Counted from the first letter of the stretch, positions 6,544 to 30,665 are shown. The stretch is DNA of 64,000 nucleotides from an uncultured bacterium (GCA_963801165.1 CAWDDT010000009.1:192001-256000); one strand, 5' to 3'. Notes: generated by a model from the sequence alone, not told the origin. Program-made: numbers and translations.

Positions 6544-6555
6544 CGGTGGGCTCTC

Positions 6556-8688: not shown

Positions 8689-8711
8689 CTGAATCGCACC
8701 TTCTTTGTCTG

Positions 8712-10661: not shown

Positions 10662-10844
10662 GCTGCTGGTACCCCCCACCAGTAACCCCCGTCAGTTGCA
10701 GGACCGGAAAAGTAGTGGCCCCTGTCCGATGGCGAAGGATGGTTGTCCCACGCACATCGTGACTAGTGAGAGTCTATAAGCGGTCCTGGCAATGGGGGAG
10801 GGATCCTTGTGATTCTGCGATGTGGCTAGATGAATAGCCCATGA

Positions 10845-13555: not shown

Positions 13556-14634
13556 AAGAGGGCTCCCGTGAGTAGTTGGTCAAAGCGGGCAATCGCCCGG
13601 TCCAGGCTGTAGTTGCTGCGAACGTGGTCACGCTGTTCCCCGCCCATGGCTTCGAGCAAGGCCCGATCGGCGGCGAGGCGCTCCACCGCGGCGACCATCG
13701 CGGACACGTCTCCCGGGGGGACGAGGATCCCGCTGGTCCCGTTGACCATGGTCTCGCCGGTGCCACCGACGTCGAACGCCACCGTGGGAACGCCTGCGGC
13801 TCCTGCCTCGAGCACGGCGCCGGGCAAGCCTTCGGTTCGTGATGTGAGCAGGAGGAGGTCTGCCCAGCGCAGGTGCGGGGTCACGTCCTCGACCGAACCC
13901 GTCAACTCGATGGTGACCCGCTCGGAGGTCTCGGCGCCCCACGCGGCGATCTCAGCCTCGAGCGGACCGGCGCCGACCAGCCGGAGATGGACGTCGTGGC
14001 TCTTTCCGATCTGGACGGCGACTTCGACGGCGGCGAGTGGGTCCTTCTCGGGCGAGAGGCTGCCGAGAAACAACATCTGAAGCTGCTCTAGGCGCGGCTC
14101 CGACGCCACGAAGAACTCGGGCGGCACGCCGGTCGGTGCGACGTGAACCCGATCGGGCGGGATGCCGAGATCCGAGACGAGCTGGCGCCCCGTCGTGGCG
14201 GAAACCGCCAGGATCGTGTCGGCTCTCCTGTGGAGAAATCGATTGAGGCGGAGGTGCCAATTCGACCTCATCCAATAGCGTGGCTCGCCGATGCTGCCGT
14301 AGGCCAGGATGGGCCGGTGGAGCAGCAAGGAGCGGGCGGCTACCGCATAGCGGAGCGTGGCGCCACCGTTGGCGAGGACGATCGCCGGTCTGGTCCGGGC
14401 CATGCGCCGTCGCAGCGACAGGACTGTGCTGACGTCAAACCTGGCCCGAGACTCGCCCCCGGTGAGCGTGATTGCGTCGACGACACGCTCGGTGTTTGCA
14501 CCCTGAATCGCAACGAAGTCCACATCCCATCCGAATGCAGGCAGCCCGGCGGCGAGTCGTTCTCCGAACACTTCGGCGCCGCGGCGGCGATTGCTGGCTA
14601 CCAGCAGCATCAGTGTCTTGCGTCCTGTGCTCAC
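13552..14634 (-). CDS. Glycosyltransferase family 4
   Basis: RRGAE, EKDP and EGLPGAVLEA motifs; stop overlaps the next GTG start; exact start uncertain. Confidence 0.9.
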   Translation of the reverse strand: MSTGRKTLMLLVASNRRRGAEVFGERLAAGLPAFGWDVDFVAIQGANTERVVDAITLTGGESRARFDVSTVLSLRRRMARTRPAIVLANGGATLRYAVAARSLLLHRPILAYGSIGEPRYWMRSNWHLRLNRFLHRRADTILAVSATTGRQLVSDLGIPPDRVHVAPTGVPPEFFVASEPRLEQLQMLFLGSLSPEKDPLAAVEVAVQIGKSHDVHLRLVGAGPLEAEIAAWGAETSERVTIELTGSVEDVTPHLRWADLLLLTSRTEGLPGAVLEAGAAGVPTVAFDVGGTGETMVNGTSGILVPPGDVSAMVAAVERLAADRALLEAMGGEQRDHVRSNYSLDRAIARFDQLLTGALL

Positions 14635-14785
14635 TTCTCCCACTCCGGACCGGGTCGGCGCCACGCTACAGGACACACCTCCGGCCCGCAGATCACGCGG
14701 GGACCCGAACCAATGTGAGTCAGACGGGAAGCTAGGCGGAGACCCTGGTTATGCTGCGGGCTCCGATGTCTCACTGGTGGGGTTC

Positions 14786-16192
14786 ATGAACAAGCACAGG
14801 GCTGCTGCCTTCTTCGTCGCATTACAGGTCATTCTCGCGGTCACTATGACTGTTCCGGTGGCCGCTCAGGAAGGCGGGACGAAGGACTGTTCCCAGACCT
14901 CGACGGGCCAGGTTCCCATCATGGACCTCGGAACCGACACGTACCAAGGTCAAGAAGGGGGGCTGTACCCGGGTGGCTCAAACGAGGTTCCCGCCGATCA
15001 CGAAGCGCTCGGTTTGTGGCGTGCCTCCCAGATCGTGCCGAGAGACGCCGCAGGCGACCCCGATCCCGGTGGGACCATCGTTCTCCTCTCGATTGGTGTC
15101 TCCAACACCAGGATGGAGTGGCAGAACCTTCGGCGACAAGCCGTGGATGCCGTTGCCCCGGATGTGACGATTGTCAACGGCTCTCAGCCCGGTGAGGACG
15201 TGAGCACGTGGCAAGACGTGGCGGGTGAACCCTGGATCGGTATCGAGGGTCTGCTGGCCAATAACGATGTCACTCCCGAGCAGGTGCAAGCAGCGTGGAT
15301 CATGCTGCCCGAGTCCGTCGACAGCGTCGCTGAGATCCCGCCGTTTCCCGAGGACGCCCAGACCTACCGTGATGAGCTCGCGGTCGTTGTGCGCAACGCC
15401 ATGGATCATTTTCCCAACCTTCAGGTCGCCTACCTGTCGAGCCGTATGTACGCCGGCTACAACACGACTGGACGGCCCAACCCGGAGCCGCTGGCCTACG
15501 AAGAGGGCTTCGGAGTCAAGTGGCTGATCGGCGATCAGATTGAAGGTGACCTGAGCCTCAATACCGACGAGCGGCGCGGCGAGGTCGAGGCGCCCTGGCT
15601 CGCCTGGGGCCCTTACACGTGGGCTGACGGTATGAGCCCGCGCAGCGACGGGCTGATCTGGGAATGCGACGACGTGCAAGACGACGGCATCCACCCCTCG
15701 CCGAGCGGTGGCGCCAAGATCGGGGCCATGCTGCTCGAGCACTTCACTACTGCGGCGACGGCGGCACCCTGGTTCTCGGGGGTCGGGGAGCCAATCGGTG
15801 CGGTGACGCTACCGCCGGTGGTCCCGGGTGTCACGACGACAACCGCCGAGACGCCGACCACATCGACTACTACTACCACCGCCGCGTCCGACGTCACTAC
15901 CACGACAGAGCGCAGCTTCTCCGGTTCGGATCGCCCCGGCCCGCCCGACCGTACCGACCGTGAGGCGGAGCGTGCCGCCCGGGCCGACGAGCGAACCGCA
16001 TCTCGATCCGACATGAGCTGGTTGGTCGGGACGGTAGCGGCATTGGCTCTGATACTTGCGCTGGTGGCGCTTGTTGGATCCAGAAGGCGGCGTCGCAATA
16101 GGGACGTGGCCTCGGACAGTACCGGCGGTGGCGGCGTGGCGAGCCCGGGCGATGGGCAGGTCGGGCCGACAGGCAGCAGCTACTCACCTTGA
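14786..16192 (+). CDS. Secreted SGNH/GDSL-like esterase or acyltransferase with Thr-rich stalk and C-terminal membrane anchor
   Basis: Signal peptide MNKHR...VAA; IGVSN (block I Ser), NGSQPG (block II), DGIHP (block V); Thr-rich linker; TM followed by RRRRR. Confidence 0.65.
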   Translation: MNKHRAAAFFVALQVILAVTMTVPVAAQEGGTKDCSQTSTGQVPIMDLGTDTYQGQEGGLYPGGSNEVPADHEALGLWRASQIVPRDAAGDPDPGGTIVLLSIGVSNTRMEWQNLRRQAVDAVAPDVTIVNGSQPGEDVSTWQDVAGEPWIGIEGLLANNDVTPEQVQAAWIMLPESVDSVAEIPPFPEDAQTYRDELAVVVRNAMDHFPNLQVAYLSSRMYAGYNTTGRPNPEPLAYEEGFGVKWLIGDQIEGDLSLNTDERRGEVEAPWLAWGPYTWADGMSPRSDGLIWECDDVQDDGIHPSPSGGAKIGAMLLEHFTTAATAAPWFSGVGEPIGAVTLPPVVPGVTTTTAETPTTSTTTTTAASDVTTTTERSFSGSDRPGPPDRTDREAERAARADERTASRSDMSWLVGTVAALALILALVALVGSRRRRRNRDVASDSTGGGGVASPGDGQVGPTGSSYSP

Positions 16193-16569: not shown

Positions 16570-16812
16570 ATGGCCGTTGAAGTCCGTCCGATCATCGCCG
16601 AGTACATAAAGAGCGAGTTCGCCTCCGGGAGCGAAGTCGACGTCGACTCGGTGAACCTATTGGAAGAGGAAATCATCGACTCGCTCGGGATCTTCACGCT
16701 GGTCAGCTTCATCGAGGACAAGTTCGGCGTGTCGGTCGAGCCCGAAGAAGTGAATCTGGACAACTTCGAGACCGTCGACGCTGTTACCAAGCTGGTGGAA
16801 GGAAAGCTCTAG
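16570..16812 (+). CDS. Stand-alone acyl/peptidyl carrier protein (PltL/RedO/AnaD-like role inferred)
   Basis: 80 aa, acidic; IIDSLGI phosphopantetheinylation site; NFETVD tail; strong RBS. Confidence 0.9.
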   Translation: MAVEVRPIIAEYIKSEFASGSEVDVDSVNLLEEEIIDSLGIFTLVSFIEDKFGVSVEPEEVNLDNFETVDAVTKLVEGKL

Positions 16813-16974
16813 AAGTGTGCTGGTTGATTCCAGTTCAGGCTTGACGCCCCGGTCGACAACCTCGAGACACCGGGCCGTCTGCGGGGCCTGCGCGGCGATC
16901 AATTACCGCCCCGCCAGCGGCTCGGGATCGTCGTCGCATTTAGCACCCGGCGCGAGCTACCCTCGGTGGCTGTC

Positions 16975-18522
16975 ATGAAAGCCCGTTCCTTCCCACCACG
17001 ACTGAGCCCCCGGCTGTGGGTTGCACTGGTGGTCGTGCTTGCGACGGCGGTGTTTACCCCATTTCCCGGGACGACAACTCGCGCCCATGCCCTCGGCGGT
17101 CTTTGCTCGAACACGTCGACCGGGTTCGTCCCGCTGATCGACGGCATCGGCCTCTACGACGGTGGCAACGACATGCCCGCCTCCCTTGCCGGGCAGGCAC
17201 CCGAGATCAAGCCGATCAACGGCGTTATCGGCCTCGTGGTGCTGGGGATGTCGAACGGGTCTCAAGAATGGGGGGCGTTCATGGACCTGGTTGCTGCTTC
17301 GAGTGGGGTCGCCTCGGACGTCAAGCTCGCCAACGGTGCCATCGGCGGCCAGACCATGGCGGAATGGGCGGTGCCGGGCGCTCAGGTGTGGTCCGACTCC
17401 GCGTCCCGCATCCAGGACGGCGGTCTCGCGCCGAATCAGGTGGAAGTCGCTTGGATGAAGATGGGCTCGCAGCTCGGTCAGCTGGCTCCGACAGAAGGCG
17501 AGCGGACCGAGCAGGAGCGCGCCTGGCTCGAGTCGGTGATCAGCAACGCCCACGACACGTTCCCCAACCTGCAGCGTATCTATATCTCTTCACGGATCTA
17601 CGCCGGCTACGCATCGACGCCCGACCACCACGAGCCGGAGACGGGATGGGGCAACGGTCTCTCGGTCAGAGCGGTCGTGTCCGACTCCGTCGCGGGCAGC
17701 ACCGCGATCTGGACTGCATGGGGCCCGTATCTGTGGGCGGACGGTCTCACCGGGCGGAGCGACGGCCTGACCTGGGAGTGCAGCGACTTCGAGGGGGACG
17801 GCGTGCACCCCGCCGCTTCGGGTGAGCAGAAAGTGGCTTCACATCTGTGGGACTTCTTCGCCGGTGAGCCTTCCGCCTGTGAGTGGTTCCTGAGTGACTC
17901 GTCGCAATGCGGCTCCGTCGGTGGCGGCGATGGTGGTGGTGGTGGTGGTGGCGGCGGCGGCGGCGCAGGTGGTGGAGTCACCGGTCATTTCGACGACGTC
18001 CCGACTGCCAGCACGTTCTTCTCGGACATCGAATGGCTCGCCAAGAGCGGCATCACTGCGGGATGCAACCCACCCGACAACAACCTGTTCTGCCCCGACG
18101 ATCCCGTGACCCGCGGCGAGATGGCGGCGTTCATCGACAGGGCACTTGACCTGCCCGATGGTCCCGATGCCTTCGGTGACGACACGGGATCCGTGTTCGA
18201 AGGTAACATCAACGCCATTGCTCGGGCGGGGATCACAGAGGGTTGTAACCCGCCGCGCAACTCCAACTTCTGTCCCGACGATCCGGTCAGTAGGGGCGAG
18301 ATGGCCGCTTTCCTGGCACGCGCCTTTGATCTGCCACCAGGCCCCGACGTGTTCCGCGACGACGACGCTTCGGTGTTCGAGGCTGACATCGACGCGCTGG
18401 CCGCGTTGGGGATCACCTACGGCTGCAACCCTCCGGCCAACGATCGCTTCTGCCCGACGGCTTCGATCACGAGAGCGGAGATGGCCGCTTTCCTCCACCG
18501 ATCCGAGGCATACCTGCCCTAA
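16975..18522 (+). CDS. Secreted SGNH-like enzyme (paralogue of 14786-16192) with Gly linker and three SLH-like repeats
   Basis: Signal peptide ending AHA; LGMSN, NGAIGG and DGVHP; shares FPNLQ..Y.SSR.YAGY and AWGPY.WADG...RSDGL.WEC with the upstream paralogue; three GCNPP...FCP...TR.EMAAF repeats. Confidence 0.75.
   Translation: MKARSFPPRLSPRLWVALVVVLATAVFTPFPGTTTRAHALGGLCSNTSTGFVPLIDGIGLYDGGNDMPASLAGQAPEIKPINGVIGLVVLGMSNGSQEWGAFMDLVAASSGVASDVKLANGAIGGQTMAEWAVPGAQVWSDSASRIQDGGLAPNQVEVAWMKMGSQLGQLAPTEGERTEQERAWLESVISNAHDTFPNLQRIYISSRIYAGYASTPDHHEPETGWGNGLSVRAVVSDSVAGSTAIWTAWGPYLWADGLTGRSDGLTWECSDFEGDGVHPAASGEQKVASHLWDFFAGEPSACEWFLSDSSQCGSVGGGDGGGGGGGGGGGAGGGVTGHFDDVPTASTFFSDIEWLAKSGITAGCNPPDNNLFCPDDPVTRGEMAAFIDRALDLPDGPDAFGDDTGSVFEGNINAIARAGITEGCNPPRNSNFCPDDPVSRGEMAAFLARAFDLPPGPDVFRDDDASVFEADIDALAALGITYGCNPPANDRFCPTASITRAEMAAFLHRSEAYLP
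17920..17976 (+). repeat. (GGT)6(GGC)5 microsatellite encoding a poly-Gly linker
   Basis: Read directly at 17932-17964, in frame between the catalytic and SLH domains. Confidence 0.9.
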
Positions 18523-18612: not shown

Positions 18613-20874
18613 ATGACAAGAAGGCTCCGTTCGGTCACTGTCACCGGGCTATCGCTGGCCGGTATGCTCATCGCCGCCCTCCTCGTGGCAGTGCCGGCTC
18701 CACCCGCTGCCGCGGCGGCAAGTCGGGTACTCCACGACGGTGAGAGCTTTCCCAACGGTTTCACCGTTCCGGCAGGGGAGGTCTGGGAGCTCGATCCCAA
18801 CGCCGACACCAAGGTGACCACGTCCGGCAACGTTGTCGTGCTCGGCACATTGCGGATGCGGCCGAATTCAGCAGACATCGAGCAATTCCTTCAGTTCACC
18901 AATATCGACGAATCGAAATTTGTCGGAGGTGGTTCGAGCCACAACGACACCCCGAACGACATTGGGCTCTGGGTCGAGGACGCAGGCGTTCTCGATATCT
19001 CGGGCACCCCCGTCGTTCCCTGGTCCTACGACTGGCAATCGGGCTGGTCGGCTGCAGATGACATCGTCGCCGCACCGAACACACCGGGCGACTACACGAC
19101 GTTCAGCCAGGTGGACGGACCGGGCGACGTGCCTGCACCGAATACACTCGGCTACAAGACCGAGTTGCTCAACTTGACCAGGAACGTCCGGATCGAAGGT
19201 ACACCCACCGGGCGGGCTCACGTCCTGATCCACTCGTCCTCACCGCAGACCATCCGCTACGCAGCTCTTCGCTATATGGCACCGTGGATCGGTAAACACG
19301 ACTCGGGGCGCTACGGGCTGCATTTCCACCACAACCACGATGGTTCCCGCGGGTCGGTCGTCGAGGGCGTTGTGATCCGCGATACGAACAACCACGCCTT
19401 TGTGGTCCACGCCTCGCACGGGGTGACAGTGACCAACACCATCGCCTACAACGTGACGTCCGAGGCCTACTGGTGGGACGAGTCAACCAGCGAAGCTTGC
19501 GGCGACAACACCGGATGTAACGAGACCTTCGATCTCGTGTACGACCATATCGTCGCCGCCAAGATCACTCCGAACCCGGACCGCCCTCATGAGGCTTCTG
19601 CCATTCAGCTCGGGGGTGGCGAGAACATGACCATCACCGGGGCGGTAGTCGTGGGCATGCTCGACAGCGGCCAGAACGTATCTGCATACACGTGGCCGTC
19701 GAACGACAAGGGGATCTGGAACTTCACCGACAACAAGGCGCACAACAACCAGAGCCACGGGGTCTTCGTGTGGCAGAACTCCGCCGGCGAAGATGACGAG
19801 AACCATCTGGTCGACGGTCTTACCGCCTACTACAACGCCAAATCCGGCATCAACCACGGCGCCTACGGAAACTCCTACGTGTACCGGAATCTGACCCTTC
19901 TCGAGAACGCCCAGGATCCCTCGCTCGGTGAGCAATACGACGCCGCCATCAACTCGCACGCCCTTGGGAAGAAATCCCGAACGACGACGGGCCCGGGCGC
20001 CACCGACACGCAGGAGTGGAGCGGCGTCAACACGGGCGGGGCGAGGCTGCTCATTCTCGGGCACAACACCCCCCTCGAGCACAACGTGCGTTTCATGTTC
20101 TGCGATTTCTCCGAGATCCTGTTCAACGAAGTCGGCGGCAACAACGGTGGCGGCTACGACTTTATCGAGTGTGGCCTCGACCCGACCGACTTCGATCGCA
20201 CCGGCATCCACCCCGACACCGTGATCCGGGTCCAGGACGGTGACAGTGCATACCAATTCGTCGGCACTGGCCCGGTGCAGACCATTTCACCGTTCTATGA
20301 CAACCCGCAGCCGCCCCCTCCTCCTGGTGCGGATCCCGGCTTTATCGATACGAGCGCCTCGGTGTTCCGCGCCGACATCGAGTGGCTGGCTGCCGAGGGG
20401 ATAACTCAAGGGTGCAATCCGCCCGTCAACAATATGTTCTGTCCCGACCAGTTCGTTACACGAAGCCAGATGGCTGCGTTCCTCACCCGGGCTCTCGACC
20501 TTCCCGCGGGTGCCGGCAATCCGTTCATCGACGACGATGGCAGTGTCTTCGAGGGCCCCATCGAGTCACTGCAAGCTGAGGGAATCACTCAGGGCTGCAA
20601 TCCGCCGCTCAACAATATGTTCTGTCCCGGTGATTATGTGACCAGGGGCCAGATGGCGGCGTTCCTGGGACGTGCGCTTGCTCTTCCAGCAGGGTCGGGC
20701 AATCCGTTTGTCGACGACAACGGGAATCTATTCGAGGTTGCGATCGAGTCGCTGGCGGCATCCGGGATAACCCATGGCTGCAACCCGCCGATAAACGACC
20801 GTTTCTGCCCCGACTCGTACGTGACCAGGGGCCAGATGGCGGCATTCCTGCACCGGGCTTCTCTTTACTTCTAG
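18613..20874 (+). CDS. Secreted right-handed beta-helix protein (G8/CEMIP-TMEM2/PKHD1-like) with three SLH-like repeats
   Basis: Signal peptide; LNLTRNVRIEG and RYGLHFHH...GSVVEG.VIRDTNNHAFVVHASHGV resemble the PKHD1/CEMIP beta-helix; Asn-rich PbH1-like repeats; Pro linker; three GCNPP repeats. Confidence 0.65.
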   Translation: MTRRLRSVTVTGLSLAGMLIAALLVAVPAPPAAAAASRVLHDGESFPNGFTVPAGEVWELDPNADTKVTTSGNVVVLGTLRMRPNSADIEQFLQFTNIDESKFVGGGSSHNDTPNDIGLWVEDAGVLDISGTPVVPWSYDWQSGWSAADDIVAAPNTPGDYTTFSQVDGPGDVPAPNTLGYKTELLNLTRNVRIEGTPTGRAHVLIHSSSPQTIRYAALRYMAPWIGKHDSGRYGLHFHHNHDGSRGSVVEGVVIRDTNNHAFVVHASHGVTVTNTIAYNVTSEAYWWDESTSEACGDNTGCNETFDLVYDHIVAAKITPNPDRPHEASAIQLGGGENMTITGAVVVGMLDSGQNVSAYTWPSNDKGIWNFTDNKAHNNQSHGVFVWQNSAGEDDENHLVDGLTAYYNAKSGINHGAYGNSYVYRNLTLLENAQDPSLGEQYDAAINSHALGKKSRTTTGPGATDTQEWSGVNTGGARLLILGHNTPLEHNVRFMFCDFSEILFNEVGGNNGGGYDFIECGLDPTDFDRTGIHPDTVIRVQDGDSAYQFVGTGPVQTISPFYDNPQPPPPPGADPGFIDTSASVFRADIEWLAAEGITQGCNPPVNNMFCPDQFVTRSQMAAFLTRALDLPAGAGNPFIDDDGSVFEGPIESLQAEGITQGCNPPLNNMFCPGDYVTRGQMAAFLGRALALPAGSGNPFVDDNGNLFEVAIESLAASGITHGCNPPINDRFCPDSYVTRGQMAAFLHRASLYF

Positions 20875-20896: not shown

Positions 20897-22459
20897 TCAC
20901 GCGATGTGCTGCTTGAGCAATGTTTGCCGGTCGATCTTGCCGGTGGAGGTCTTGGGGAGCACCGTTGTGACCAGTATCGCCTCGGGAACCATATATCGCT
21001 GGATCCGTGCTGCACAGAACGAAGTCAACTCCCGTTCCGTGACCTCGCCGGACACGGAGACGTAGGCGACGATCCGGTTCGAGATCATCTCGTCGGGTAT
21101 CGCAAGCGCGGCGGCCTCGACCACCCCCGGATGGGCGTTTAGCGCAGCCTCGATATCGCCGAGCTCGATGCGGTAGCCGCGGCTCTTGATCTGGTTGTCG
21201 CGGCGTCCTAGGAAGCGGTAGTTGCCGTCCGGCATTTCCTCAACGAGATCACCGGTGCGATAAACCGGATCGCCGTGATGGCGGGCGACCGGACTCGTGA
21301 TCAGCCGGGTCCTGGTTCGCTCCGGATCACCCCAATAGCCGGCCATCACGGTCGGGCCTCGTACCAGCAGCTCGCCGACCTCGCCCGGTTGGACGAGGTT
21401 GTCCCCCTCGTCGACTACGAACGTCTCGACATTGGTGATCGCATGACCTATCGAGATGGTTGGCCCGTCCTCGTCCGGTGATTCGGGCACAGAATAGGCA
21501 GTGCACACGTTTGTTTCCGTAGGCCCGTAGAGGTTGGCGAAGGCCACGTGTGGCAGCCGTTTCATGATCCGGGACAAGTACTTGGTGGGGAACACCTCTC
21601 CGGCAAATAGCATCTGCCGGAGACTGGGAAGGTCACCGACCTCGAGACCGCCCTTTTCGATCAGCATGATCAATATCGACGGCACCGAGTACCAGACCGT
21701 GATCTCGTTGGTCGTGATGAACTTGGCGACCTCGGCCGGGAAGAGTGCCGCCTTTGCCGGGACCAAATACACGGGTGCACCCGACAGCGCAGCCGAGTAC
21801 AAATCGAAGGTCGACAGGTCGAAGTGGAACGGCGCATGGCTGGAGATGCGATCCTCGCTCGTGATCGAATATTCGTCGATTGCCCACTCGACGAATGCTC
21901 TGCAGTTGAGATGCGACAGCATGACGCCTTTGGGGTCACCCGTCGATCCGGATGTGTAGAGGATGTAGGCGAGATCCTGGTCGATGATGCCCGGGTCGCG
22001 CGGTATGCCACCGGCCTCGATCCAGCTGGAGCGGTGTATGGATACGCCCGCCGCCGAGGCGGGCGTATCGGTGTCCATTGCCAGGACGTGCTCGACACCG
22101 GCCGTGCCCAGCCCCCCCCAGGCGCCGGCGCGCTTGGCGCCGCTGATGACATGGCGGATCCCGCAATTGTTGGCGATGTACTGGACCCGGGCTTCTGGGG
22201 CCGACGGATCGATCGGTACGTACGCAGCTCCCGCCTTCATAGCGCCGTAGATGCCGATGACACCCTCCGCAGCCTTAGGAAGGTAGATGCCGACGCGGTC
22301 ACCGGGTTGCACGCCCAGCTCGACCAGCCTGGCCGCTACGGCGTCGGACCTCTCGTCAAGCTCACGGTACGTGAGCTGCCGGTCCCGGTCGACGAGTGCG
22401 ATCGAGTCAGGCGCCCGTCGCGCCGAATCGCGTAGGTAGTGATGCAGGAGGTACTTCAT
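20897..22459 (-). CDS. Stand-alone amino acid adenylation enzyme, probably L-proline:carrier-protein ligase (PltF/RedM/AnaC/CloN4 type)
   Basis: Core motifs YTSGSTGDPKG, FDLS, FAGE, NLYGPTETNVC, YRTGDL, GRRDNQIKSRGYRIE and LPKTSTGKIDR. Hand-extracted specificity code D-L-F-Y-L-A-L-V-C-K. Confidence 0.85.
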   Translation of the reverse strand: MKYLLHHYLRDSARRAPDSIALVDRDRQLTYRELDERSDAVAARLVELGVQPGDRVGIYLPKAAEGVIGIYGAMKAGAAYVPIDPSAPEARVQYIANNCGIRHVISGAKRAGAWGGLGTAGVEHVLAMDTDTPASAAGVSIHRSSWIEAGGIPRDPGIIDQDLAYILYTSGSTGDPKGVMLSHLNCRAFVEWAIDEYSITSEDRISSHAPFHFDLSTFDLYSAALSGAPVYLVPAKAALFPAEVAKFITTNEITVWYSVPSILIMLIEKGGLEVGDLPSLRQMLFAGEVFPTKYLSRIMKRLPHVAFANLYGPTETNVCTAYSVPESPDEDGPTISIGHAITNVETFVVDEGDNLVQPGEVGELLVRGPTVMAGYWGDPERTRTRLITSPVARHHGDPVYRTGDLVEEMPDGNYRFLGRRDNQIKSRGYRIELGDIEAALNAHPGVVEAAALAIPDEMISNRIVAYVSVSGEVTERELTSFCAARIQRYMVPEAILVTTVLPKTSTGKIDRQTLLKQHIA

Positions 22460-22460
22460 C

Positions 22461-23606
22461 TCATAGTCCCATGTGGCGGGCGATGATGTTCTTCTGGATG
22501 TCGTTTGTGCCCGAGTAGATTCGCCCGGCAATGGCATCCCGGACGTCGCGCTCGACTTCGGTCTCGGTCATGAACCCGAGTGCGCCGTAGATCGACACCG
22601 CATCGAGGCTGGATTGCAGGAACGACTCGCTGAGCTGCTGTTTGACCATGGCGGCGTCGAGTGCCGATGTCTCGCCCTGATCGAGGACCCATCCAAGCCG
22701 GTACAGCAGCAGGCGTGAGGTCTCCAGCCTGATCTTCATGTCCACCAGGCGGTGCGAGACAGCCTGGAACTTGCCGATCGGTTCGCCGAACTGACGTCGC
22801 TCTTTCGCATACGCGACGGCCTTCTCCAACTGGCGCTCCATCGTTCCGACCGCACTGGCGAGGATGCAGCTGCGTTCCCACTCGATGGAGTGGTTGAACA
22901 CCATCATGCCGGATCCGACTCTGCCCAGCAGATTCTCCTTGGGTACCCGGCAGTCGTTGAACGCAAGCTCGGACATGGGTGAGGTCCTGAGCCCCATCTT
23001 CTTGAAGTTGACGCCAACGTCGAGACCGGGCGTCCCCTTCTCAACGATGAAGGCGCACAAGCCGGCCCAACCCTTCGACCTGTCGATGCTGGCGAAGACC
23101 ACGAACAAGTCTGCAACCGGAGCGTTGGTGATGTAGGTCTTCGAGCCGTTGAGCACGTAGACGTCTCCGTCCAGCCGTGCGGTCGTCTTCAAGCTATACG
23201 CGTCGGAGCCCGAGTCCGGCTCGGTCATCCCCTGTACCGAGATCAGCGATCCGTCGTTGAGGCCCGGCAGGTATTTCGCCTTCTGCTCCTCGGTGCCGAA
23301 GCGATGAATCGGCATGGCCCCGGACCAGATGTGGGCGTTGATCGAGAAGATGAGTCCGTTGTCGGCGCAGCCGTAACCCAGACCCTCCATGGCCAGGATG
23401 GTGGTTAACGCGTCCGCTCCCTGACCGCCGTATTCCTCGGGAAATGGAAGACCCTGGATACCAATCTTTGCCGCTTTGACCCACGCTTCCCGAGAGAACT
23501 CGCTTGCCTGGTCGCGGTCGGCGACCCGATCGTTCAGCTCTTTCTGGGCAAACTCGACTACGGCAGCCCGATACGCGAGCTGCTCTTCGGTCCAACGGAA
23601 ATCCAC
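22461..23606 (-). CDS. Acyl-CoA dehydrogenase-family L-prolyl-carrier-protein dehydrogenase (AnaB/PltE/RedW/CloN3 type)
   Basis: MDF.W...Q start, GLGYGC.DNGLIF..NAHIW, TEPDSGSD, FNHSIEWER..ILA.AVGTMER, and IYSGT instead of YEGT. Stop lies 1 nt before the A-domain ATG. Confidence 0.85.
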   Translation of the reverse strand: MDFRWTEEQLAYRAAVVEFAQKELNDRVADRDQASEFSREAWVKAAKIGIQGLPFPEEYGGQGADALTTILAMEGLGYGCADNGLIFSINAHIWSGAMPIHRFGTEEQKAKYLPGLNDGSLISVQGMTEPDSGSDAYSLKTTARLDGDVYVLNGSKTYITNAPVADLFVVFASIDRSKGWAGLCAFIVEKGTPGLDVGVNFKKMGLRTSPMSELAFNDCRVPKENLLGRVGSGMMVFNHSIEWERSCILASAVGTMERQLEKAVAYAKERRQFGEPIGKFQAVSHRLVDMKIRLETSRLLLYRLGWVLDQGETSALDAAMVKQQLSESFLQSSLDAVSIYGALGFMTETEVERDVRDAIAGRIYSGTNDIQKNIIARHMGL

Positions 23607-23749
23607 TGCGTTTCCCCCTCTCCCGGGTGCGGCGGAAGTGTAACCATGGCTGCCCAGCGCTGGGCATGAAAAAGAATCCCTAGCCCATCGGGTGGTCTGC
23701 GTGCTTGAATTGCCGAGCCAATACGGCCAAACGAGGGGAATGCTTTCAG

Positions 23750-24907
23750 TTGAGTAGCACGGGTGGGTATGCCCGCATAGTCGTCGACGAGCTCACCAAG
23801 GTGTACGAGCCGTCGCCGCTCTGGATGCGGGCGTTGGTCAGAACAAACATCAAAGAGCCGGTCCACGCGCTCAATGGAGTCAGCTTCACCGTGGGCACAG
23901 GCGAAATTGTCGCTGTTGTCGGGCCGAACGGCGCGGGGAAGACGACAACCTTCAAGATACTGGTGGGCTTGACGACACCGACAGCGGGCTCGGCCAGCGT
24001 GATGGGATTCGACTCCATAAGGGAATCAGTCGAAGTGAGACGATCGATTGGTTGGATGCCCGGCGATCATCGCAGCTTGCTGATGCGACACTCCGTCATC
24101 GAGAACCTGAGGTTCCATGGCCGATTGCAGGGCATGTCCGGGCAGCCGCTGATCCGGAAGATCCGAGAGACCCTGGAGATGGTCGGGCTGGAAAGGCGTG
24201 CTCGGAGCAACGGGTTCTCGCTGTCGGCGGGAATGCTGGCCCGGCTGCAACTCGCCAGGGCTCTCCTTCACGACCCGGAGATCCTCATTCTCGATGAGCC
24301 GACTGGTGCCGTCGACCCGGTCGCCGCGCATGACCTCATCCAGTTGATCAAAGAGATCGTTGCCGAGAGGGGTATGGCGGCGCTGATCAGCTCGCACCGT
24401 CTGGAAGAGATCGAGACTCTGGACTCGCGCGTGCTGTTGCTCGACCACGGGCGGATTCGCTACGACGGGCGTCTCGACGAACTGCGCCGTATCTGGGACA
24501 AGCCCACTCTTCAGATCGGCTTCCGTTCCACCGCCAGTGCCGACGCAGCAGCACAGACCTTGAAGGAGGCCGGTTTCGCCAGCGTGAGTCGCAAGGACGG
24601 CTCGGTGACCTTCCCCTTGGAGAGCGGAGTCTCCCATGCCGACGTGCTCGCCCGGCTGCGCGGCCAAATCGAGGATATGACCGATCTGAGCGAGTCCCAC
24701 CGACCGCTGCAGACGGTGCTCGCCGAGCTCTATCGCACCGACCCCGAGGGCAGTGAAGGCGGCGGCCCGACCGGCGCACAGCCCGGCAACAGCGGTCAGG
24801 TGTCACCGGTCTCGAGAAGGGAGCGGGCCCGACCGGCCGATCTCCGGGGCGACGAGGGCGCGGCGGATCCAGCGTCTGTAGAAGGCGGCGAGGAGGTAGA
24901 GCGATGA
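23750..24907 (+). CDS. ABC exporter ATP-binding subunit (DrrA/NodI-like)
   Basis: GPNGAGKTT, LSAG signature, ILDEPT, SSH; start uncertain (TTG 23750 or 23705). Confidence 0.9.
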   Translation: MSSTGGYARIVVDELTKVYEPSPLWMRALVRTNIKEPVHALNGVSFTVGTGEIVAVVGPNGAGKTTTFKILVGLTTPTAGSASVMGFDSIRESVEVRRSIGWMPGDHRSLLMRHSVIENLRFHGRLQGMSGQPLIRKIRETLEMVGLERRARSNGFSLSAGMLARLQLARALLHDPEILILDEPTGAVDPVAAHDLIQLIKEIVAERGMAALISSHRLEEIETLDSRVLLLDHGRIRYDGRLDELRRIWDKPTLQIGFRSTASADAAAQTLKEAGFASVSRKDGSVTFPLESGVSHADVLARLRGQIEDMTDLSESHRPLQTVLAELYRTDPEGSEGGGPTGAQPGNSGQVSPVSRRERARPADLRGDEGAADPASVEGGEEVER

Positions 24908-25737
24908 GCACCCGCAAGACACAAATGAGCACGCGTCAAGCCGTGGTCGCTACAGCCACCGCGTTCTTCCGGGTCGATGTGATCGAGGAAGCCAACTACC
25001 CGATCTCGTTTGCGATGCGTCTGCTCGGCGTGGTCGCACCGCTGATCCCGTTCTTCTTCATAAGCAAGCTCGTGGGCAACTCACCCGAGGTGGGTGGGGA
25101 CTACCTGACCTTCACCGTGATCGGTCTGGCCATGACTGCTCTTCTGACGGCCGCCATGGTCGGCTTCGGAAACACCCTCCAGCAGTCCTTCCAACGGGGA
25201 ACCATGGAGACCTTCCTGATCGAACCGGTTCCGTGGACCGCCATCCCGCTCGCGATGAACCAATGGCAGGTGATGAACGGGCTCATCTACACGGTGCTCC
25301 TGATGGGTGCCGGATGGGTCCTCGGCGCCCACTATCAGCTGGGCGGCGTCGGGGCCGCAATCCTGATCGCCCTGCTCGGAATCACAGCCGGTCTGGCGAT
25401 CGGGATCGTGTCCGCTGCGGTGCTGTTGCTGACGTTGAAGTCGACCCCGGTGATTCGGATATATGACATCGCTGCTTCGCTGCTCGCCGGGAGCCTGTTC
25501 TCGGTGGCGCAGCTTCCGGGGTGGGCCCAGGCGCTCAGTGTGGTGTTGCCGCATACCTACGTGATCAACGGGGTACGGACGGCGCTGATGGCGGACCCGG
25601 GGTCGTACGAGATCTCGTTGACCCGAGCGGTCGTTTCACTCGGGGTCTTCGATGTGGTCGTCTTCGCTTTCGGGATCTGGCTGTGGCGCCGAACCCTCGA
25701 GTACTCGAGGAAGATCGGCCTCCTGGGTGGGTACTGA
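24904..25737 (+). CDS. ABC-2 type permease (DrrB/NodJ-like)
   Basis: ATGA overlap with the ATPase; six TMs; GTMETFL..P and LPGWAQ....LPHTY motifs. Confidence 0.88.
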   Translation: MSTRKTQMSTRQAVVATATAFFRVDVIEEANYPISFAMRLLGVVAPLIPFFFISKLVGNSPEVGGDYLTFTVIGLAMTALLTAAMVGFGNTLQQSFQRGTMETFLIEPVPWTAIPLAMNQWQVMNGLIYTVLLMGAGWVLGAHYQLGGVGAAILIALLGITAGLAIGIVSAAVLLLTLKSTPVIRIYDIAASLLAGSLFSVAQLPGWAQALSVVLPHTYVINGVRTALMADPGSYEISLTRAVVSLGVFDVVVFAFGIWLWRRTLEYSRKIGLLGGY

Positions 25738-26848
25738 GCCGCGCGACACCGTCCTGTTCGTCTCGCTGCCGCAGGCGATCGGCGGCAGCAACCGCAGTCT
25801 GGTCACGCTGCTCGAGACGATCGAGGGCAAGGTCCGGCGGGTGCTTGCCTCGCCTCGCCCCGGGGCATTTGCCGACTTAGCGGCCGAGCGGAATGCGTTC
25901 GACGAATGGTTCGACCTCGCCAAAAAGGGTCGGCTCGGTCGGGTGCGCCGGCTGTGGGATGGGCTCCAGCTCGCGGTCTGGGCATTCCGCAACCGGGCGC
26001 GGCTGGCGGCGATACATGCGAACGCTATCACCGGTCTCAACGCGGTGGCCCTCGCCGCAATCGTGTCCCGGCGCCCGGTGGTCGCTTGGATTCACGACCC
26101 GGTCTCGACCCCGTGGAGCCGTAGGCTCGGGCCGTGGGTGCGCAGGCTGATTGCCGACCTTCGCATAACCGCGGTGTCCCCAACCGCTGAGGCGGTGGCG
26201 GTCGAAAGCGGTCTATGCGACCGCGGTACCGCGATCATCGTCCCCAATCCGCTCGACCCCAAGGACGTCGTCTTCACGAAACCGGAATATCACGAGGGTG
26301 TGACCATCGCCGTGCTGGGGGGCTCCACGAACCGCAAAGGCTTCGACCTGATTCCCGCGGTCGTCCGTGAGGTCGACGATCTGGCAGTGCAGTGGCGGCT
26401 GTACATCAAGCACGCCCCGACGCCCGAGAACGAGGATGTCTGGGCGCAGCTCGACGCCATGGGTTCCGTCTCGGTACCCGGGCGGATCTCCGATGTACGT
26501 CAAGCCTACGCAGGCGCCGATATCGTCTTTGTTCCTTCGCGGGAGGAGTCGTTCTGCCGGATCGCGGCGGAGGCTATGACCAACGGCGTCCCGGTGGTGG
26601 CCAGCGATATCCCTCCGCTGCGTTATCTGCTGGGCGACGGTGCGGGGCTGTTGTTTCCGGTTGCCGACGTCAAAGCTGCTGCTGCGGCGCTACGTGTGTT
26701 CGTCACCGATGCAGACGTCAGGCGCCACGCCGGCGCCATCGGCGTCGAGCGCGCCGCCAATTTCCAGCCGGACGGAGTGGCCGCCCAGATGCTCGAGCTA
26801 TATCGGTTGCCCCGGCGATCAAGACGCACCGGGGAAGTGACCACCTGA
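25727..26848 (+). CDS. Glycosyltransferase family 4
   Basis: GGSNRS, HAN, RKGFD and EESFCRIAAEA motifs; GTG start overlaps the end of the permease. Confidence 0.88.
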   Translation: MGTEPRDTVLFVSLPQAIGGSNRSLVTLLETIEGKVRRVLASPRPGAFADLAAERNAFDEWFDLAKKGRLGRVRRLWDGLQLAVWAFRNRARLAAIHANAITGLNAVALAAIVSRRPVVAWIHDPVSTPWSRRLGPWVRRLIADLRITAVSPTAEAVAVESGLCDRGTAIIVPNPLDPKDVVFTKPEYHEGVTIAVLGGSTNRKGFDLIPAVVREVDDLAVQWRLYIKHAPTPENEDVWAQLDAMGSVSVPGRISDVRQAYAGADIVFVPSREESFCRIAAEAMTNGVPVVASDIPPLRYLLGDGAGLLFPVADVKAAAAALRVFVTDADVRRHAGAIGVERAANFQPDGVAAQMLELYRLPRRSRRTGEVTT

Positions 26849-27549: not shown

Positions 27550-28203
27550 CTACCCGAACCGGTAGCCGACGCTGCGGACGGTGGTTATCCACGAGGCCCG
27601 TTCCTCGCCCAGCTTGGCCCGGAGCCGGCGGATGTGGACGTCGACGGTCCGGGAGCCGCCGAAGTAGTCATAGCCCCAGACCCGGTTGAGGATCTGATCA
27701 CGGCTCCATACCCGGGCGGGGTTCTCCACCAGGAAGCGCAACAACTCGTACTCCATGAAGGTCAGGTCACGGAAATCGCCGCCGACGGTGGCCTGGTAGG
27801 TAGCGGTGTTGAGCTCGAGATCGCGGAACCGGATGATCTCCTCCTCGGTTATCGACGTATTGACAGCATGTAGCCGCCCCAGCCTCACCCTGAGCTCGGT
27901 GCGGTCAACCGGCGAGAGGATGAAGTCGGTGAACCCGGTCTCCCCGGCGATGTCGGCCGTCATGGTTCTGTCGATCAGCAGCAAGACGGGTAGCCCGTAC
28001 TCGTCTGTGATCTTGGTGGCCATCGCCAGCGATCGGCCCAGATCCGAAGTGACCTCCACGACCGCAGCCGTCCAGCCACCTTTGGGGATGCGATCCTCGA
28101 TGTCTGAGATGGTTTCGATCGGCACCGGCTGGTACCCAGCGTCCAGCAAGCCGGCAATCAGCGGCTGGGTGGGCGACGCCGGGTAGACCGCGAGGAACAT
28201 CAC
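27550..28203 (-). CDS. glnR: Orphan OmpR-family nitrogen regulator GlnR
   Basis: Winged helix DLTFMEYELLRFL...VWGYDYFGGSRTVDVHIRRLRAKLG...TVRSVGYRF matches actinobacterial GlnR; atypical receiver domain; adjacent to two glutamine synthetases. Confidence 0.8.
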   Translation of the reverse strand: MMFLAVYPASPTQPLIAGLLDAGYQPVPIETISDIEDRIPKGGWTAAVVEVTSDLGRSLAMATKITDEYGLPVLLLIDRTMTADIAGETGFTDFILSPVDRTELRVRLGRLHAVNTSITEEEIIRFRDLELNTATYQATVGGDFRDLTFMEYELLRFLVENPARVWSRDQILNRVWGYDYFGGSRTVDVHIRRLRAKLGEERASWITTVRSVGYRFG

Positions 28204-29483
28204 AACACCGGAAGGTACTGCTCTAATTCGAACCGTGAGACATGGTGCTCATAACGTTGCCACTCCAGTCTCTTGTTGCGCAAGAACCAATCGAAGACAT
28301 GCGTGCCGAGTGCGTCCTTGACCAGCGACGACGACTCCATGGCATCGAGAGCCTCTGCCAGGCTGGTCGGCAACCGTTCCGCATGGGTGTCGTCCCGGAG
28401 CTTGTAGCCCTTCTCGATTCCCTCGAGCCCTGCCGCCAGGATCACCGACAGTGCTAGATACGGGTTGCACGCCGGGTCGGGTGCCCGGTACTCGATGCGG
28501 GTTGCGCCGGGTCGGTCGGTTCCGGTGCTCGGCACCCGGACCACGGCGGCCTGGTTGGTGCGGTCCCAGGTCGACAGCACCGGGGCGTCGAATCCGCTGA
28601 CAAGCCGTTTGTACGAGTTGACCCACTGGTTGGTGACTGCGGTGATCTCCCGGCCGTGGCGGATCAGCCCCGCTATGAACGCTCGCGCCACATCCGACAG
28701 ATTATCGGCCCGACCGGCGTCGTAGAAGGCGTTGTCGTCGCCCTGGAACAGGGACAGGTGGAGATGCAACCCGGAGCCGTCGTGACCCTCGAGTGGCTTG
28801 GGCATGAACGTCGCGTAGATGCCGTGCTCCATGGCCACCTCTTTGATGGCGAGCCGGGTGGTGACCAGATTGTCGGCCATCGTCAGGGCGTCGGTATGCC
28901 GCAGGTCGATCTCGTGCTGGCTCGGCGAGACCTCGTGGTGTGACGACTCGACCGGGATGCCGAGCCGCTCGAGCGCCATGATGGTGCTACGTCGGTATTC
29001 CTGGGCGACATCGAGGGGGGTGAGGTCGAAGTACCCGCCCCGGTCGAGGATCTTTGGCTCGGTCCCGCTGTCGGCGAAGTAGAAGTACTCGACCTCGGGC
29101 CCGACATAGAACGTGAAGCCGTGGTTGCGGGCTCGATTGAGGTTACGGCGCAGAACCAGGCGCGGGTCACCCGAGAACGGCTTGCCGTCGGGACGCACGA
29201 TGTCGCAGAACATCCGTGCCGCCCCGACGTTGCCGTGGCGCCACGGAAGGATCTGAAACGTGGTCGGATCGGGTTTGGCGAGCATGTCGGATTCCTGGTC
29301 ACGGGAGAACCCGTCGATGGAGGATCCGTCGAACCGCATGCCGTGGGCAAACGCCGTTTCGAGCTCGGCCGGGGTTATCGCAAAGGACTTGAGCAGTCCG
29401 AGGACATCTGTGAACCACAGCCTGATGAAGCGCACGCCGCGCTCCTCGACGGTTCTCAGTACGTAATCCTCTTGCCTGGCCAT
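28200..29483 (-). CDS. glnA2: Glutamine synthetase type I-alpha family, actinobacterial GlnA2-like
   Basis: MARQEDYVLRTVEERGVRFIRLWFTDVLG start after a GGAGG RBS; FDGSSI, HHEV.PSQHEI, TFMPKP, NSYKRL and RIEYRAPD motifs. Confidence 0.8.
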   Translation of the reverse strand: MARQEDYVLRTVEERGVRFIRLWFTDVLGLLKSFAITPAELETAFAHGMRFDGSSIDGFSRDQESDMLAKPDPTTFQILPWRHGNVGAARMFCDIVRPDGKPFSGDPRLVLRRNLNRARNHGFTFYVGPEVEYFYFADSGTEPKILDRGGYFDLTPLDVAQEYRRSTIMALERLGIPVESSHHEVSPSQHEIDLRHTDALTMADNLVTTRLAIKEVAMEHGIYATFMPKPLEGHDGSGLHLHLSLFQGDDNAFYDAGRADNLSDVARAFIAGLIRHGREITAVTNQWVNSYKRLVSGFDAPVLSTWDRTNQAAVVRVPSTGTDRPGATRIEYRAPDPACNPYLALSVILAAGLEGIEKGYKLRDDTHAERLPTSLAEALDAMESSSLVKDALGTHVFDWFLRNKRLEWQRYEHHVSRFELEQYLPVL

Positions 29484-29551
29484 GTTCGGTTCACCTCCAG
29501 GGGGGCGATGGTAAGCCAGATTTCCCGGTATTGACAGTCGAAAGGCCATCC

Positions 29552-29589
29552 GAAACACAGTGTTCACATTCCTGTTACTCGAAGGAAAC
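29552..29589 (+). promoter_or_regulatory. Four phased GlnR-box half-sites in the glnA2/glnII divergent intergenic region
   Basis: GAAAC-n6-TTCAC-n6-GTTAC-n6-GAAAC; AC recurs every 11 bp, matching the gTnAc-n6-GaAAc / AC-n9-AC consensus. Confidence 0.8.
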
Positions 29590-29657: not shown

Positions 29658-30665
29658 ATGGTTTACAGAGCCGAGTACATCTGGATCGACGGTCAGCAGC
29701 CGACCGCAAAGCTGCGATCGAAGACCAAGGTCATCGCCGATGGGGAAGAGCCACCGATCTGGGGATTTGACGGCTCGAGCACCGAGCAGGCGGTCGGCAG
29801 CTCGTCCGACTGTGTGCTGCGGCCGGTGCGTGTTGTCCCCGATCCAATCCGCGGCGGCGACAACAAGCTCGTGATGACCGAGGTGCTCAACACCGACATG
29901 ACTCCGCACGAGACCAACACTCGTGCCAGGTGTTCCGAGGTCGCCGAGAAGTACGCTTCTTTCGAGCCGTGGTTCGGTATCGAGCAGGAGTACACATTCT
30001 TCAAGGACGGGCGTCCCCACGGGTGGCCGGCCGGTGGCTACCCGGCCCCGCAGGGCGGCTACTACTGCGGTGTCGGCGCAGACGAGATCTGGGGCCGCGA
30101 CGTCGTCGAGGCGCACACCGACGCCTGTATCGCCGCGGGTATCACCATCTCCGGTACCAACGCTGAAGTCATGATCGGGCAGTGGGAGTTCCAGATCGGC
30201 CCGGGTGATGCCCTGCAAGTATCGGATGAGCTGTGGCTTGCCCGCTGGTTGCTGTACCGGATCGCCGAGGACTTCGACATCTCGGCGCACCTCATGCCAA
30301 AGCCGGTGGCGGGTGACTGGAACGGAGCCGGTGCTCACACCAACTTCTCCACCAAGCAGATGCGAGAGAGCTACGACCCGATCATCGCCGCTTGCGAAGC
30401 TCTGGGGAAGAAGGCGGACTACCACATCAAGCAATATGGAGCAGGCATCGAGACGCGGCTCACCGGTCTTCACGAGACCGCTCCATGGACCGAGTACAAC
30501 TACGGGGTCTCCGATCGAGGTGCTTCGGTACGTATCCCATGGCAGGTCGCCCGCGACGGCAAGGGCTACATCGAGGACCGCCGTCCCAACGCCAACATGG
30601 ATCCGTACATCGTCACGGCCCTGGTCACCGAGACGGTGTGCAGCGACGCTGTATCGAGCGGCTGA
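29658..30665 (+). CDS. glnII: Glutamine synthetase type II
   Basis: AEYIWIDG, LRSKTK, WGFDGSST, GIEQEY, NAEVMIGQWEFQ, WNGAGAHTNFST, RLTGLHETA and EDRRP motifs; 335 aa. Confidence 0.95.
   Translation: MVYRAEYIWIDGQQPTAKLRSKTKVIADGEEPPIWGFDGSSTEQAVGSSSDCVLRPVRVVPDPIRGGDNKLVMTEVLNTDMTPHETNTRARCSEVAEKYASFEPWFGIEQEYTFFKDGRPHGWPAGGYPAPQGGYYCGVGADEIWGRDVVEAHTDACIAAGITISGTNAEVMIGQWEFQIGPGDALQVSDELWLARWLLYRIAEDFDISAHLMPKPVAGDWNGAGAHTNFSTKQMRESYDPIIAACEALGKKADYHIKQYGAGIETRLTGLHETAPWTEYNYGVSDRGASVRIPWQVARDGKGYIEDRRPNANMDPYIVTALVTETVCSDAVSSG

Follow-up and report, generated by a model that had tools for sequence, protein, structure and literature searches.

What do a flavoprotein with the acyl-CoA dehydrogenase (ACAD) fold and a stand-alone adenylation enzyme make together in the middle of a cell-envelope glycan locus? 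We studied this gene pair, located at positions 20897-23606 of a 64,000-nucleotide stretch of DNA from an uncultured bacterium (GCA_963801165.1, CAWDDT010000009.1:192001-256000; the whole stretch is called the window here). The host belongs to the Acidimicrobiia, an abundant and mostly uncultured class of actinobacteria. An earlier note, made from the sequence, had read the pair as a system for prolyl-carrier oxidation, and comparisons of both the adenylation pocket and the dehydrogenase with solved enzymes supported that reading. The cassette is most likely a carrier-based 'type II' nonribosomal peptide synthetase (NRPS) system for proline oxidation, whose substrate, electron number and carrier partner we infer from the comparisons below; that it loads and oxidizes proline we consider very likely. 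The enzyme family, thiotemplated proline oxidation, is known; what is new is its setting, among cell-envelope glycan genes instead of in an antibiotic cluster.

Both genes are intact open reading frames (ORFs) on the minus strand and together span exactly 20897-23606. One encodes a predicted FAD-dependent prolyl-carrier-protein dehydrogenase/oxidase of the AnaB/Bmp3/PigA kind (22461-23606, -; 381 aa, GTG start), whose start coincides in alignments with residue 1 of PigA and Bmp3. The other encodes a predicted L-proline-specific, PltF-like stand-alone adenylation enzyme (20897-22459, -; 520 aa, code DLFYLALVCK), obtained from an internal ATG at 22459 within a longer ORF, 20897-22537. Pfam matched AMP-binding in the latter (E 8.7e-95) and Acyl-CoA_dh_N, _M and _1, the three-domain ACAD fold, in the former (E 1e-24 to 7e-40), predicted assignments that are far beyond chance. 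Six-frame translation of the window recovered every motif that the earlier note had quoted, once each and in the right gene: GYGCADNGLIFSINAHIW at residues 77-94, EWER at 242-245 and IYSGT at 363-367 of the dehydrogenase, and FDLSTF (213-218), VWYSVP (255-260), MLFAGE (283-288), NLYGPTETNVC (309-319) and GKIDR (507-511) of the adenylation enzyme. The junction reads CTA TGA g ATG AAG; the adenylation gene therefore starts 1 nt after the dehydrogenase stop, the spacing given in the earlier note. Among 28 loci, counting the window, 26 place the most favorable candidate start of the adenylation gene between -4 and +12 nt relative to the dehydrogenase stop (the exceptions are L094 and L099; L numbers designate related loci, and all these starts are candidates only), and on this sequence arrangement the translational coupling proposed for the pair is plausible. 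A scan for promoters and terminators returned no promoter-like site and seven terminator-like sites, with 6.4 expected, and the 64-kb window had no Rfam family and no tRNA.

The dehydrogenase was compared with characterized enzymes through its scores against PDB chains and NCBIfam models. Among all PDB chains the top match was 4IRN (445 bits, residues 2-381), followed by 6CXT chain B (329.7 bits) and 5ZW0 (326.8 bits). The first is labeled 'prolyl-ACP dehydrogenase' (ACP, acyl carrier protein) and the third 'L-prolyl-[peptidyl-carrier protein] dehydrogenase'; we take them to be AnaB and PigA, respectively. The PDB label of 6CXT is 'butyryl-CoA dehydrogenase'; according to an excerpt of PMC8857579, the structure is that of Bmp3, which oxidizes carrier-bound proline to pyrrole, in complex with Bmp1. 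The top three are thus carrier oxidases, and true CoA enzymes appeared from 318 bits downwards, human isovaleryl-CoA dehydrogenase among them at 227. The Glu of the W-E-R/K motif was aligned and conserved in AnaB, Bmp3 and PigA, and the position of the classical YEGT glutamate was occupied by Ser, as YSGT in the window and AnaB and as FSGT in Bmp3 and PigA. The motifs GYGC.DNGLIF..NAHIW, WER and YSGT were identical to those of AnaB, in agreement with the AnaB/PltE-type assignment made earlier. In excerpts of PMC10849742, AnaB and Bmp3 are said to use this WER Glu as catalytic base, and the thiotemplated pyrrole route is described as a trio of ACP, adenylase and ACAD.

NCBIfam models gave the same picture: the PigA model scored 471.5 and the RedW model 443.9 on the dehydrogenase, and the best CoA-type model, AcrC, scored 337. 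Scanned in the same way, twelve ACADs from related loci fell into four with at least 51% identity to the window enzyme, for which PigA or RedW was best, and eight with at most 45% identity, for which AcrC was best. A maximum-likelihood tree built with 31 prolyl-type relatives and 18 of 69 CoA-type ACADs separated the two kinds with 100/100 support, and the dehydrogenase did not group with the CoA-ester dehydrogenases. L022 was omitted from this tree on account of its split gene; at L022:10001-11144 the dehydrogenase orthologue consists of one stretch that matches residues 1-195 and another, overlapping it in a different frame, that matches residues 173-381, the result of a frameshift or of a fault in the assembly. 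Database clusters with at least 65% identity to the dehydrogenase, more than 120 in number, were all labeled generic acyl-CoA dehydrogenase, and a search of plasmids gave relatives of at most 54% identity with generic annotation only. The earlier forecast of automated labels was therefore right for the dehydrogenase, whose relatives are so named, and wrong for the DltA-like label of its partner, on which the DltA models fail their cut-offs.

Pfam resolved the adenylation enzyme into AMP-binding and AMP-binding_C only, with no fused condensation or carrier domain, and NCBIfam classed it as 'amino acid adenylation domain-containing protein' (TIGR01733, 397 bits for a cut-off of 317). The DltA models scored 296.9 (NF003417, cut-off 476) and 283.2 (TIGR01734, cut-off 559.85), and a model of exosortase-associated acyl-CoA ligases reached 332 bits, also below its cut-off. 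When PDB scores are summed, two-domain synthetases come first; among single-domain matches PltF ranked highest (6O6E, 349.6 bits), with GrsA-PheA at 250 and DltA at 235 bits. The 121-aa pocket region, which holds nine of the ten code positions, matched PltF with 112.6 bits, 7THN with 93.1 and DltA with 64.7. 7THN bears the same molecule name as PltF and is presumably PigI. The code DLFYLALVCK was reproduced from the motifs under an assumed mapping: aligned to these three chains, the nine positions read DLFYLALVC in the window, DLLYLALVC in PltF (8/9 equal to the window), DLFYIAWVC in 7THN (7/9) and DLMTLCTVA in DltA (4/9). The sole difference from PltF, an F, is the residue present in 7THN, and the tenth residue, the Lys of GKIDR, was found as well. 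The pocket is accordingly that of a proline-type stand-alone ligase, as had been proposed, and by sequence the enzyme is not a DltA. Counting the window, 11 of the 14 glycan-type rows (see below) share the code DLFYLALVCK. In ten loci of other lineages an ornithine cyclodeaminase gene stood directly upstream of the homologous pair; this enzyme makes proline, so its presence there lends indirect support to L-proline activation. A search of literature text for DLFYLALVCK and DLLYLALVCK, with or without the final K, gave no match. A second AMP-binding enzyme (61056-62696, +; 546 aa) is encoded in the window far from the cassette.

A carrier protein is the third component of such a system, and the window holds one candidate, an 80-aa PCP/ACP (peptidyl or acyl carrier protein) at 16570-16812 (+) with a predicted attachment site at Ser38 in IIDSLG (codon 16681-16683). 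PF00550 matched it with 21.9-22.6 bits for a cut-off of 20.8, the NCBIfam DltC models matched it weakly, and the GC3 of its gene was 0.81. Among six PF00550 matches in the genome, it was the only stand-alone one in the window. Carrier orthologues of 54-73% identity lay within ~250 nt of the adenylation gene in L007 (seen as a partial match only), L009, L011, L087, L088, L089 and L091, and ~3.4 kb from it in L022. This arrangement makes it probable that the 16570-16812 product is the partner of the adenylation enzyme and the dehydrogenase. L009 has tandem carrier genes (12760-12990, -, and 13072-13287, -) between the adenylation gene and a PltA-like halogenase gene. Elsewhere in the genome of the window, at ~8745-9878 of contig C2, four tandem PP-binding domains lie in one 2882-aa frame, which looks like a large synthase with tandem carriers.

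From these parts we propose the following pathway. The adenylation enzyme (20897-22459) would activate L-proline to prolyl-AMP and load it on the phosphopantetheine arm of the 80-aa carrier (16570-16812); the WER Glu of the flavoprotein (22461-23606) would then take the alpha-proton as the tethered proline is oxidized. This core, from adenylation through loading on that carrier to oxidation by that dehydrogenase, we regard as likely. The most likely product would be the pyrrole-2-carboxyl-S-carrier, formed by four-electron oxidation.

Where the cassette occurs bears on what becomes of this product. The closest loci in other genomes were from Acidimicrobiia (68-75% identity), and the next relatives (51-54%) were from marine Leptolyngbya-like cyanobacteria, Isosphaeraceae and a Pyrinomonadaceae metagenome-assembled genome (MAG). 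Among 201 sampled Acidimicrobiia genomes the dehydrogenase was present at E <= 1e-110 in 15, its own included, and in none of the nine other genomes of the window's own family. The order dehydrogenase to adenylation enzyme held in 29 of the 31 loci with a prolyl-type dehydrogenase (the exceptions were L041 and L045). Trees of both proteins recovered two genomic settings. In the NRPS setting, found in cyanobacteria, the Pyrinomonadaceae MAG and some Acidimicrobiia, the ornithine cyclodeaminase gene lies immediately upstream and NRPS modules lie downstream. The glycan setting comprises 13 Acidimicrobiia loci with at least 62% identity (L007-L011, L022 and L087-L093), and the window falls within this clade with 100/98 support. 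Homologues of the glycan and export genes of the window were found in the fetched flanks of 12 of these 13 loci; the recurrent neighbors were an ABC ATPase/ABC-2 permease, a GT4-type glycosyltransferase, a transferase-GNAT fusion, a PglF-like dehydratase, a WecA-like transferase and a deacetylase. Sulfotransferases also occurred in most of them, and the window has no sulfotransferase block. On the 8.4-kb contig of the thirteenth, L010, the pair is accompanied only by a homologue of an SLH-domain protein and IS21-type genes. The cassette arrangement was found in two families of the order or more, each time with glycan genes around it. Condensation domains were absent from the window and the 13 glycan loci by tblastn with three queries, which matched only L097-L099; Pfam of the window ORFs showed neither a condensation domain nor a ketosynthase, for which no specific query was used.

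Two observations on single members of this group follow. In L010, IS21-type transposase genes (Mu-transposase C-terminal domain and IstB; 6399-8383) lie ~2 kb downstream of the pair, which hints that the pair can move. In L091 (7062-9114), a polysaccharide deacetylase and a DegT-type sugar aminotransferase are encoded directly upstream of the dehydrogenase, with three sulfotransferase genes downstream, and this locus could make an amino-sugar acceptor. We considered the same for the window and rejected it, as the window has no DegT-type aminotransferase gene.

The glycan genes of the window lie on both sides of the pair. From 4568 to 14676 they encode a polysaccharide deacetylase (4568-5389, +), a GT4-type glycosyltransferase (5350-6543, +), a Wzc-like protein with two transmembrane segments (6556-8688, -), a PglF/WbpM-like dehydratase (8712-10679, -), a WecA-like transferase (10845-11804, -), a glycosyltransferase with a C-terminal GNAT acyltransferase domain (11792-13555, -) and a further glycosyltransferase (13552-14676, -). 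The Wzc-like protein was recognized by a transmembrane scan and a weak NCBIfam tyrosine-autokinase match and the others by Pfam, and homologues of these assembly genes recur beside the cassette in related loci. Two multi-pass membrane proteins of ~9 hydrophobic stretches each and no Pfam family are encoded at 1006-2925 (-) and 151-1002 (+); these two and the 6556-8688 product may serve the glycan system in a polymerase- or flippase-like role. On the other side, divergent from the dehydrogenase gene, an ABC ATPase (23705-24907, +) and an ABC-2 permease (24904-25737, +), both identified by Pfam and NCBIfam and nearest to the DrrA/NodI types named by NCBIfam, are followed by another GT4-type glycosyltransferase (25652-26848, +; Pfam). 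The ATPase, the permease and this transferase lie near the cassette also in L007, L008, L009, L011, L087 and L088. The transferase was present in 8 of the 201 class genomes, its own included, and 6 of the 7 others carry the cassette. Further along, a full-length glutamine synthetase gene (28200-29567, -) adjoins a shorter, glutamine-synthetase-like ORF (29658-30665, +) that matches part of the catalytic domain only.

The carrier gene stands between genes for surface proteins. Just upstream lies that of an SGNH-like esterase/acyltransferase (14591-16192, +), predicted to be exported and membrane-anchored, whose sequence turns hydrophobic at residue 70 and again close to the C-terminus. This protein had no Pfam match; GxSN and DGxHP were invariant among four sequences, and its AF2 (AlphaFold2) model, of moderate confidence (pLDDT 67.5), gave top Foldseek matches that were all SGNH/GDSL proteins, including PatB, a peptidoglycan O-acetyltransferase. 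Downstream are the genes of two SLH-domain surface proteins (Pfam SLH): one has an N-terminal domain homologous to the SGNH-like protein (16966-18522, +) and the other a beta-helix (18613-20874, +; Pfam CEMIP_beta-hel), whose homologues adjoin the cassette in L008, L009, L010, L022 and L092. The SGNH-like domains of 14591-16192 and 16966-18522 are paralogous and predicted to be exported, and their genes flank the carrier gene, one with a membrane anchor and the other with SLH repeats. The carrier gene follows that of the SGNH-like protein in the window, L009 and L022, the order in the latter two being SGNH-like, halogenase and carrier. In L011 and L088 it directly follows the transferase-GNAT gene, and in L007 and L087 it does so after an intervening halogenase gene. 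The transferase-GNAT fusion was present in seven of eight surveyed glycan-type cassette genomes.

The lack of a condensation domain, together with the location of the cassette in an envelope glycan locus and its co-inheritance with it, suggests that an exported glycan or glycolipid receives the pyrrole unit on one of its sugars, a destination that we judge evenly balanced between true and false. Two candidates for the transfer from carrier to sugar would be the GNAT portion of the glycosyltransferase fusion and the exported protein of the SGNH-like kind. In its full form the proposal is that a group of Acidimicrobiia attaches carrier-made pyrrole-2-carboxylate covalently to an exported envelope glycan or glycolipid without a condensation domain, that it is chlorinated or brominated in sister loci, where sulfated sugars also occur, and that the GNAT fusion or the SGNH acyltransferase performs the transfer; we offer this whole only tentatively.

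Several findings weigh against one part or another of this reading. The dehydrogenase stayed below the equivalog cut-offs of its best models (PigA, 471.5 vs 500; RedW, 443.9 vs 650), each of which defines one specific pathway and not the whole oxidase family. The assignment of motif residues to code positions is presumably the Stachelhaus mapping. The carrier gene of the window lies on the opposite strand at a distance of 4 kb from the pair, and its product clears the PF00550 cut-off by a narrow margin. Because the glycan loci are all related to one another, with L011 and L087 almost identical, synteny counts overstate independent support. The GNAT fusion occurs also in the cassette-less genomes G174, G162 and G074, and the PDB matches of its GNAT domain were generic acetyltransferases of at most 29 bits. 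The genome has 54 SLH-domain matches, which makes SLH adjacency weak evidence; with a CsaB-like gene elsewhere, this count led us to set aside the SLH proteins as a specific link to the glycan. Finally, no enzyme for the transfer step was identified among the genes of the locus.

This last point fits an alternative, namely that the pyrrole leaves the carrier as a free or small molecule, for instance as hydrolyzed pyrrole-2-carboxylic acid, and that the glycan neighborhood shares no function with the cassette. It is unlikely, and would also fit with an ABC transporter most like small-molecule exporters of the DrrA/NodI type, with the IS21-type transposase genes beside the pair in L010 and with alpha/beta-hydrolase genes near the L092 cassette; in chalkophomycin biosynthesis, as an excerpt of PMC10849742 describes it, an alpha/beta-hydrolase frees the acid from its carrier. 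Against a chance neighborhood stand the occurrence of the arrangement in at least two families, always among glycan genes, the carrier gene downstream of the transferase-GNAT gene (directly in two loci and past a halogenase gene in two more) and the near restriction of the 25652-26848 glycosyltransferase to genomes with the cassette (6/7).

How far the oxidation goes is a separate matter, and the earlier note had held that the sequence cannot say whether two or four electrons are removed. Genomic context does bear on it. A pyrrolyl-carrier-type halogenase was encoded in seven of the 13 glycan loci. In L007, L009, L022 and L087 a 422-aa flavoprotein halogenase gene adjoins the carrier gene; the L007 enzyme matched PltA with 424.7 bits and Mpy16 with 421.9, and the next, unrelated class scored 194. 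A less closely related homologue is encoded immediately upstream of the dehydrogenase gene in L090, L092 and L093; that of L090 matched Bmp2 best (273.9 bits), and those of L092 and L093 were judged by tblastn (27-29% identity to the L007 enzyme) and position. Excerpts of PMC7336383 place Mpy16 and Bmp2 among the variant-B pyrrole halogenases, give 5DBJ as PltA and describe enzymes of the PltA/Mpy16/Bmp2 kind as acting on carrier-bound substrates. In the previously characterized pathways covered by an excerpt of PMC10849742, pyrrole is formed before halogenation. On this rule the seven loci with halogenases would produce a pyrrolyl thioester, and their orthology with the window favors four-electron oxidation there as well. 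Given that proline is loaded and oxidized, we consider pyrrole the probable product.

The alternative keeps the same enzymes and has the oxidation stop at two electrons, leaving a dehydroprolyl (pyrroline-carboxyl) thioester. AnaB, a two-electron oxidase that hands its product on to polyketide synthases, is by far the nearest relative of the dehydrogenase among solved structures (445 bits, vs ~330 for the pyrrole-forming Bmp3 and PigA), and the glycine-rich and YSGT motifs match it exactly, FSGT being the form in the other two. Moreover, the genome of the window has no close halogenase, the best having 29% identity and lying ~270 kb beyond the window. This course is nevertheless improbable, for the window dehydrogenase and adenylation enzyme nest, in both trees and with good support, within clades that contain the halogenase loci, pyrrole precedes halogenation in the pathways just cited, and in NCBIfam the PigA and RedW models reach scores on a par with that of AnaB. 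A still weaker idea, that a DltA-like or other non-proline ligase works with an ordinary acyl-CoA or acyl-carrier dehydrogenase, is very improbable, since the matches that suggest it, NCBIfam DltA at 283-297 bits and the exosortase-associated ligase at 332, are all below cut-offs and the generic ACAD names of relatives come from source databases, whereas DltA agrees at 4/9 pocket positions and scores 64.7 vs 112.6 bits in the pocket region, the CoA-type ACADs form a separate clade (100/100), and the flavoprotein carries the glutamate of WER and lacks that of YEGT.

If pyrrole formation on the carrier and transfer to a glycan are both borne out, the chemistry would be textbook thiotemplated pyrrole formation, and the interest would lie in its location and in a new use, the decoration of a surface sugar polymer. 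Among the papers that a literature search listed, none linked a pyrrole-2-carboxyl group with surface polysaccharides. Behind the generic acyl-CoA dehydrogenase labels on the more than 120 clusters, the pathway goes unseen in automatic annotation. An envelope glycan bearing an aromatic or halogenated acyl group would alter views of surface chemistry and of recognition by phages and grazers, would affect how sources of organohalogens in soils and salt marshes are seen, and would imply a new type of carrier-to-sugar acyltransferase.

Several known systems share parts with the cassette. Pyoluteorin biosynthesis (PltF/PltL/PltE, with PltA) likewise combines a stand-alone proline adenylation enzyme, a small carrier and an oxidase of the ACAD fold; the window code differs from that of PltF at one position in nine, and sister loci carry a PltA-like halogenase (424.7 bits). 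The window differs in having no condensation domain (tblastn) or polyketide synthase (Pfam of window ORFs), in lying among glycan genes and in the lack of a close halogenase in its own genome. In the Bmp1-Bmp4 bromopyrrole module, Bmp3 (6CXT) is the second-best solved match of the dehydrogenase (329.7 bits), and a Bmp2-like enzyme is encoded directly upstream of the oxidase in L090, L092 and L093, as judged by a score (273.9 bits) for L090 only. Bmp1 has its carrier fused to a thioesterase, whereas the carrier of the window stands alone, and the genomic settings differ. The anatoxin-a enzymes AnaB/AnaC/AnaD provide the closest solved relative of the oxidase, AnaB, with identical glycine-rich, WER and YSGT motifs; Pfam showed no polyketide synthase in the window, and the halogenases of orthologous loci point to pyrrole.

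Two further systems resemble the locus in the way an envelope or signal glycan is modified. The likeness to Nod-factor synthesis, in which NodB deacetylates, NodF serves as carrier, NodA transfers the acyl group to nitrogen, NodH sulfates and NodIJ exports, is one of logic only: between them, the window and its sister loci hold a polysaccharide deacetylase, a carrier and a NodI-like ABC-2 exporter, sulfotransferases are found in the sister loci only, and no NodA or NodC homologue was identified. The D-alanylation of teichoic acids by DltA-DltD shares an adenylation enzyme and a small carrier that decorate an envelope polymer, as is proposed here, and further likeness is seen in the SGNH-like exported protein encoded beside the carrier gene and in the weak DltC-model matches of the carrier. 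It differs in the pocket, where DltA matches at 4/9 positions, and in the presence of an oxidase in the window; a Dlt-like route via an MBOAT protein was considered and rejected, as the Pfam-scanned ORFs included no MBOAT. If the proposal is correct, the cassette would amount to an oxidative version of D-alanylation with NRPS-derived parts and would provide the first aromatic (and halogenated) acyl decoration of a bacterial surface glycan.

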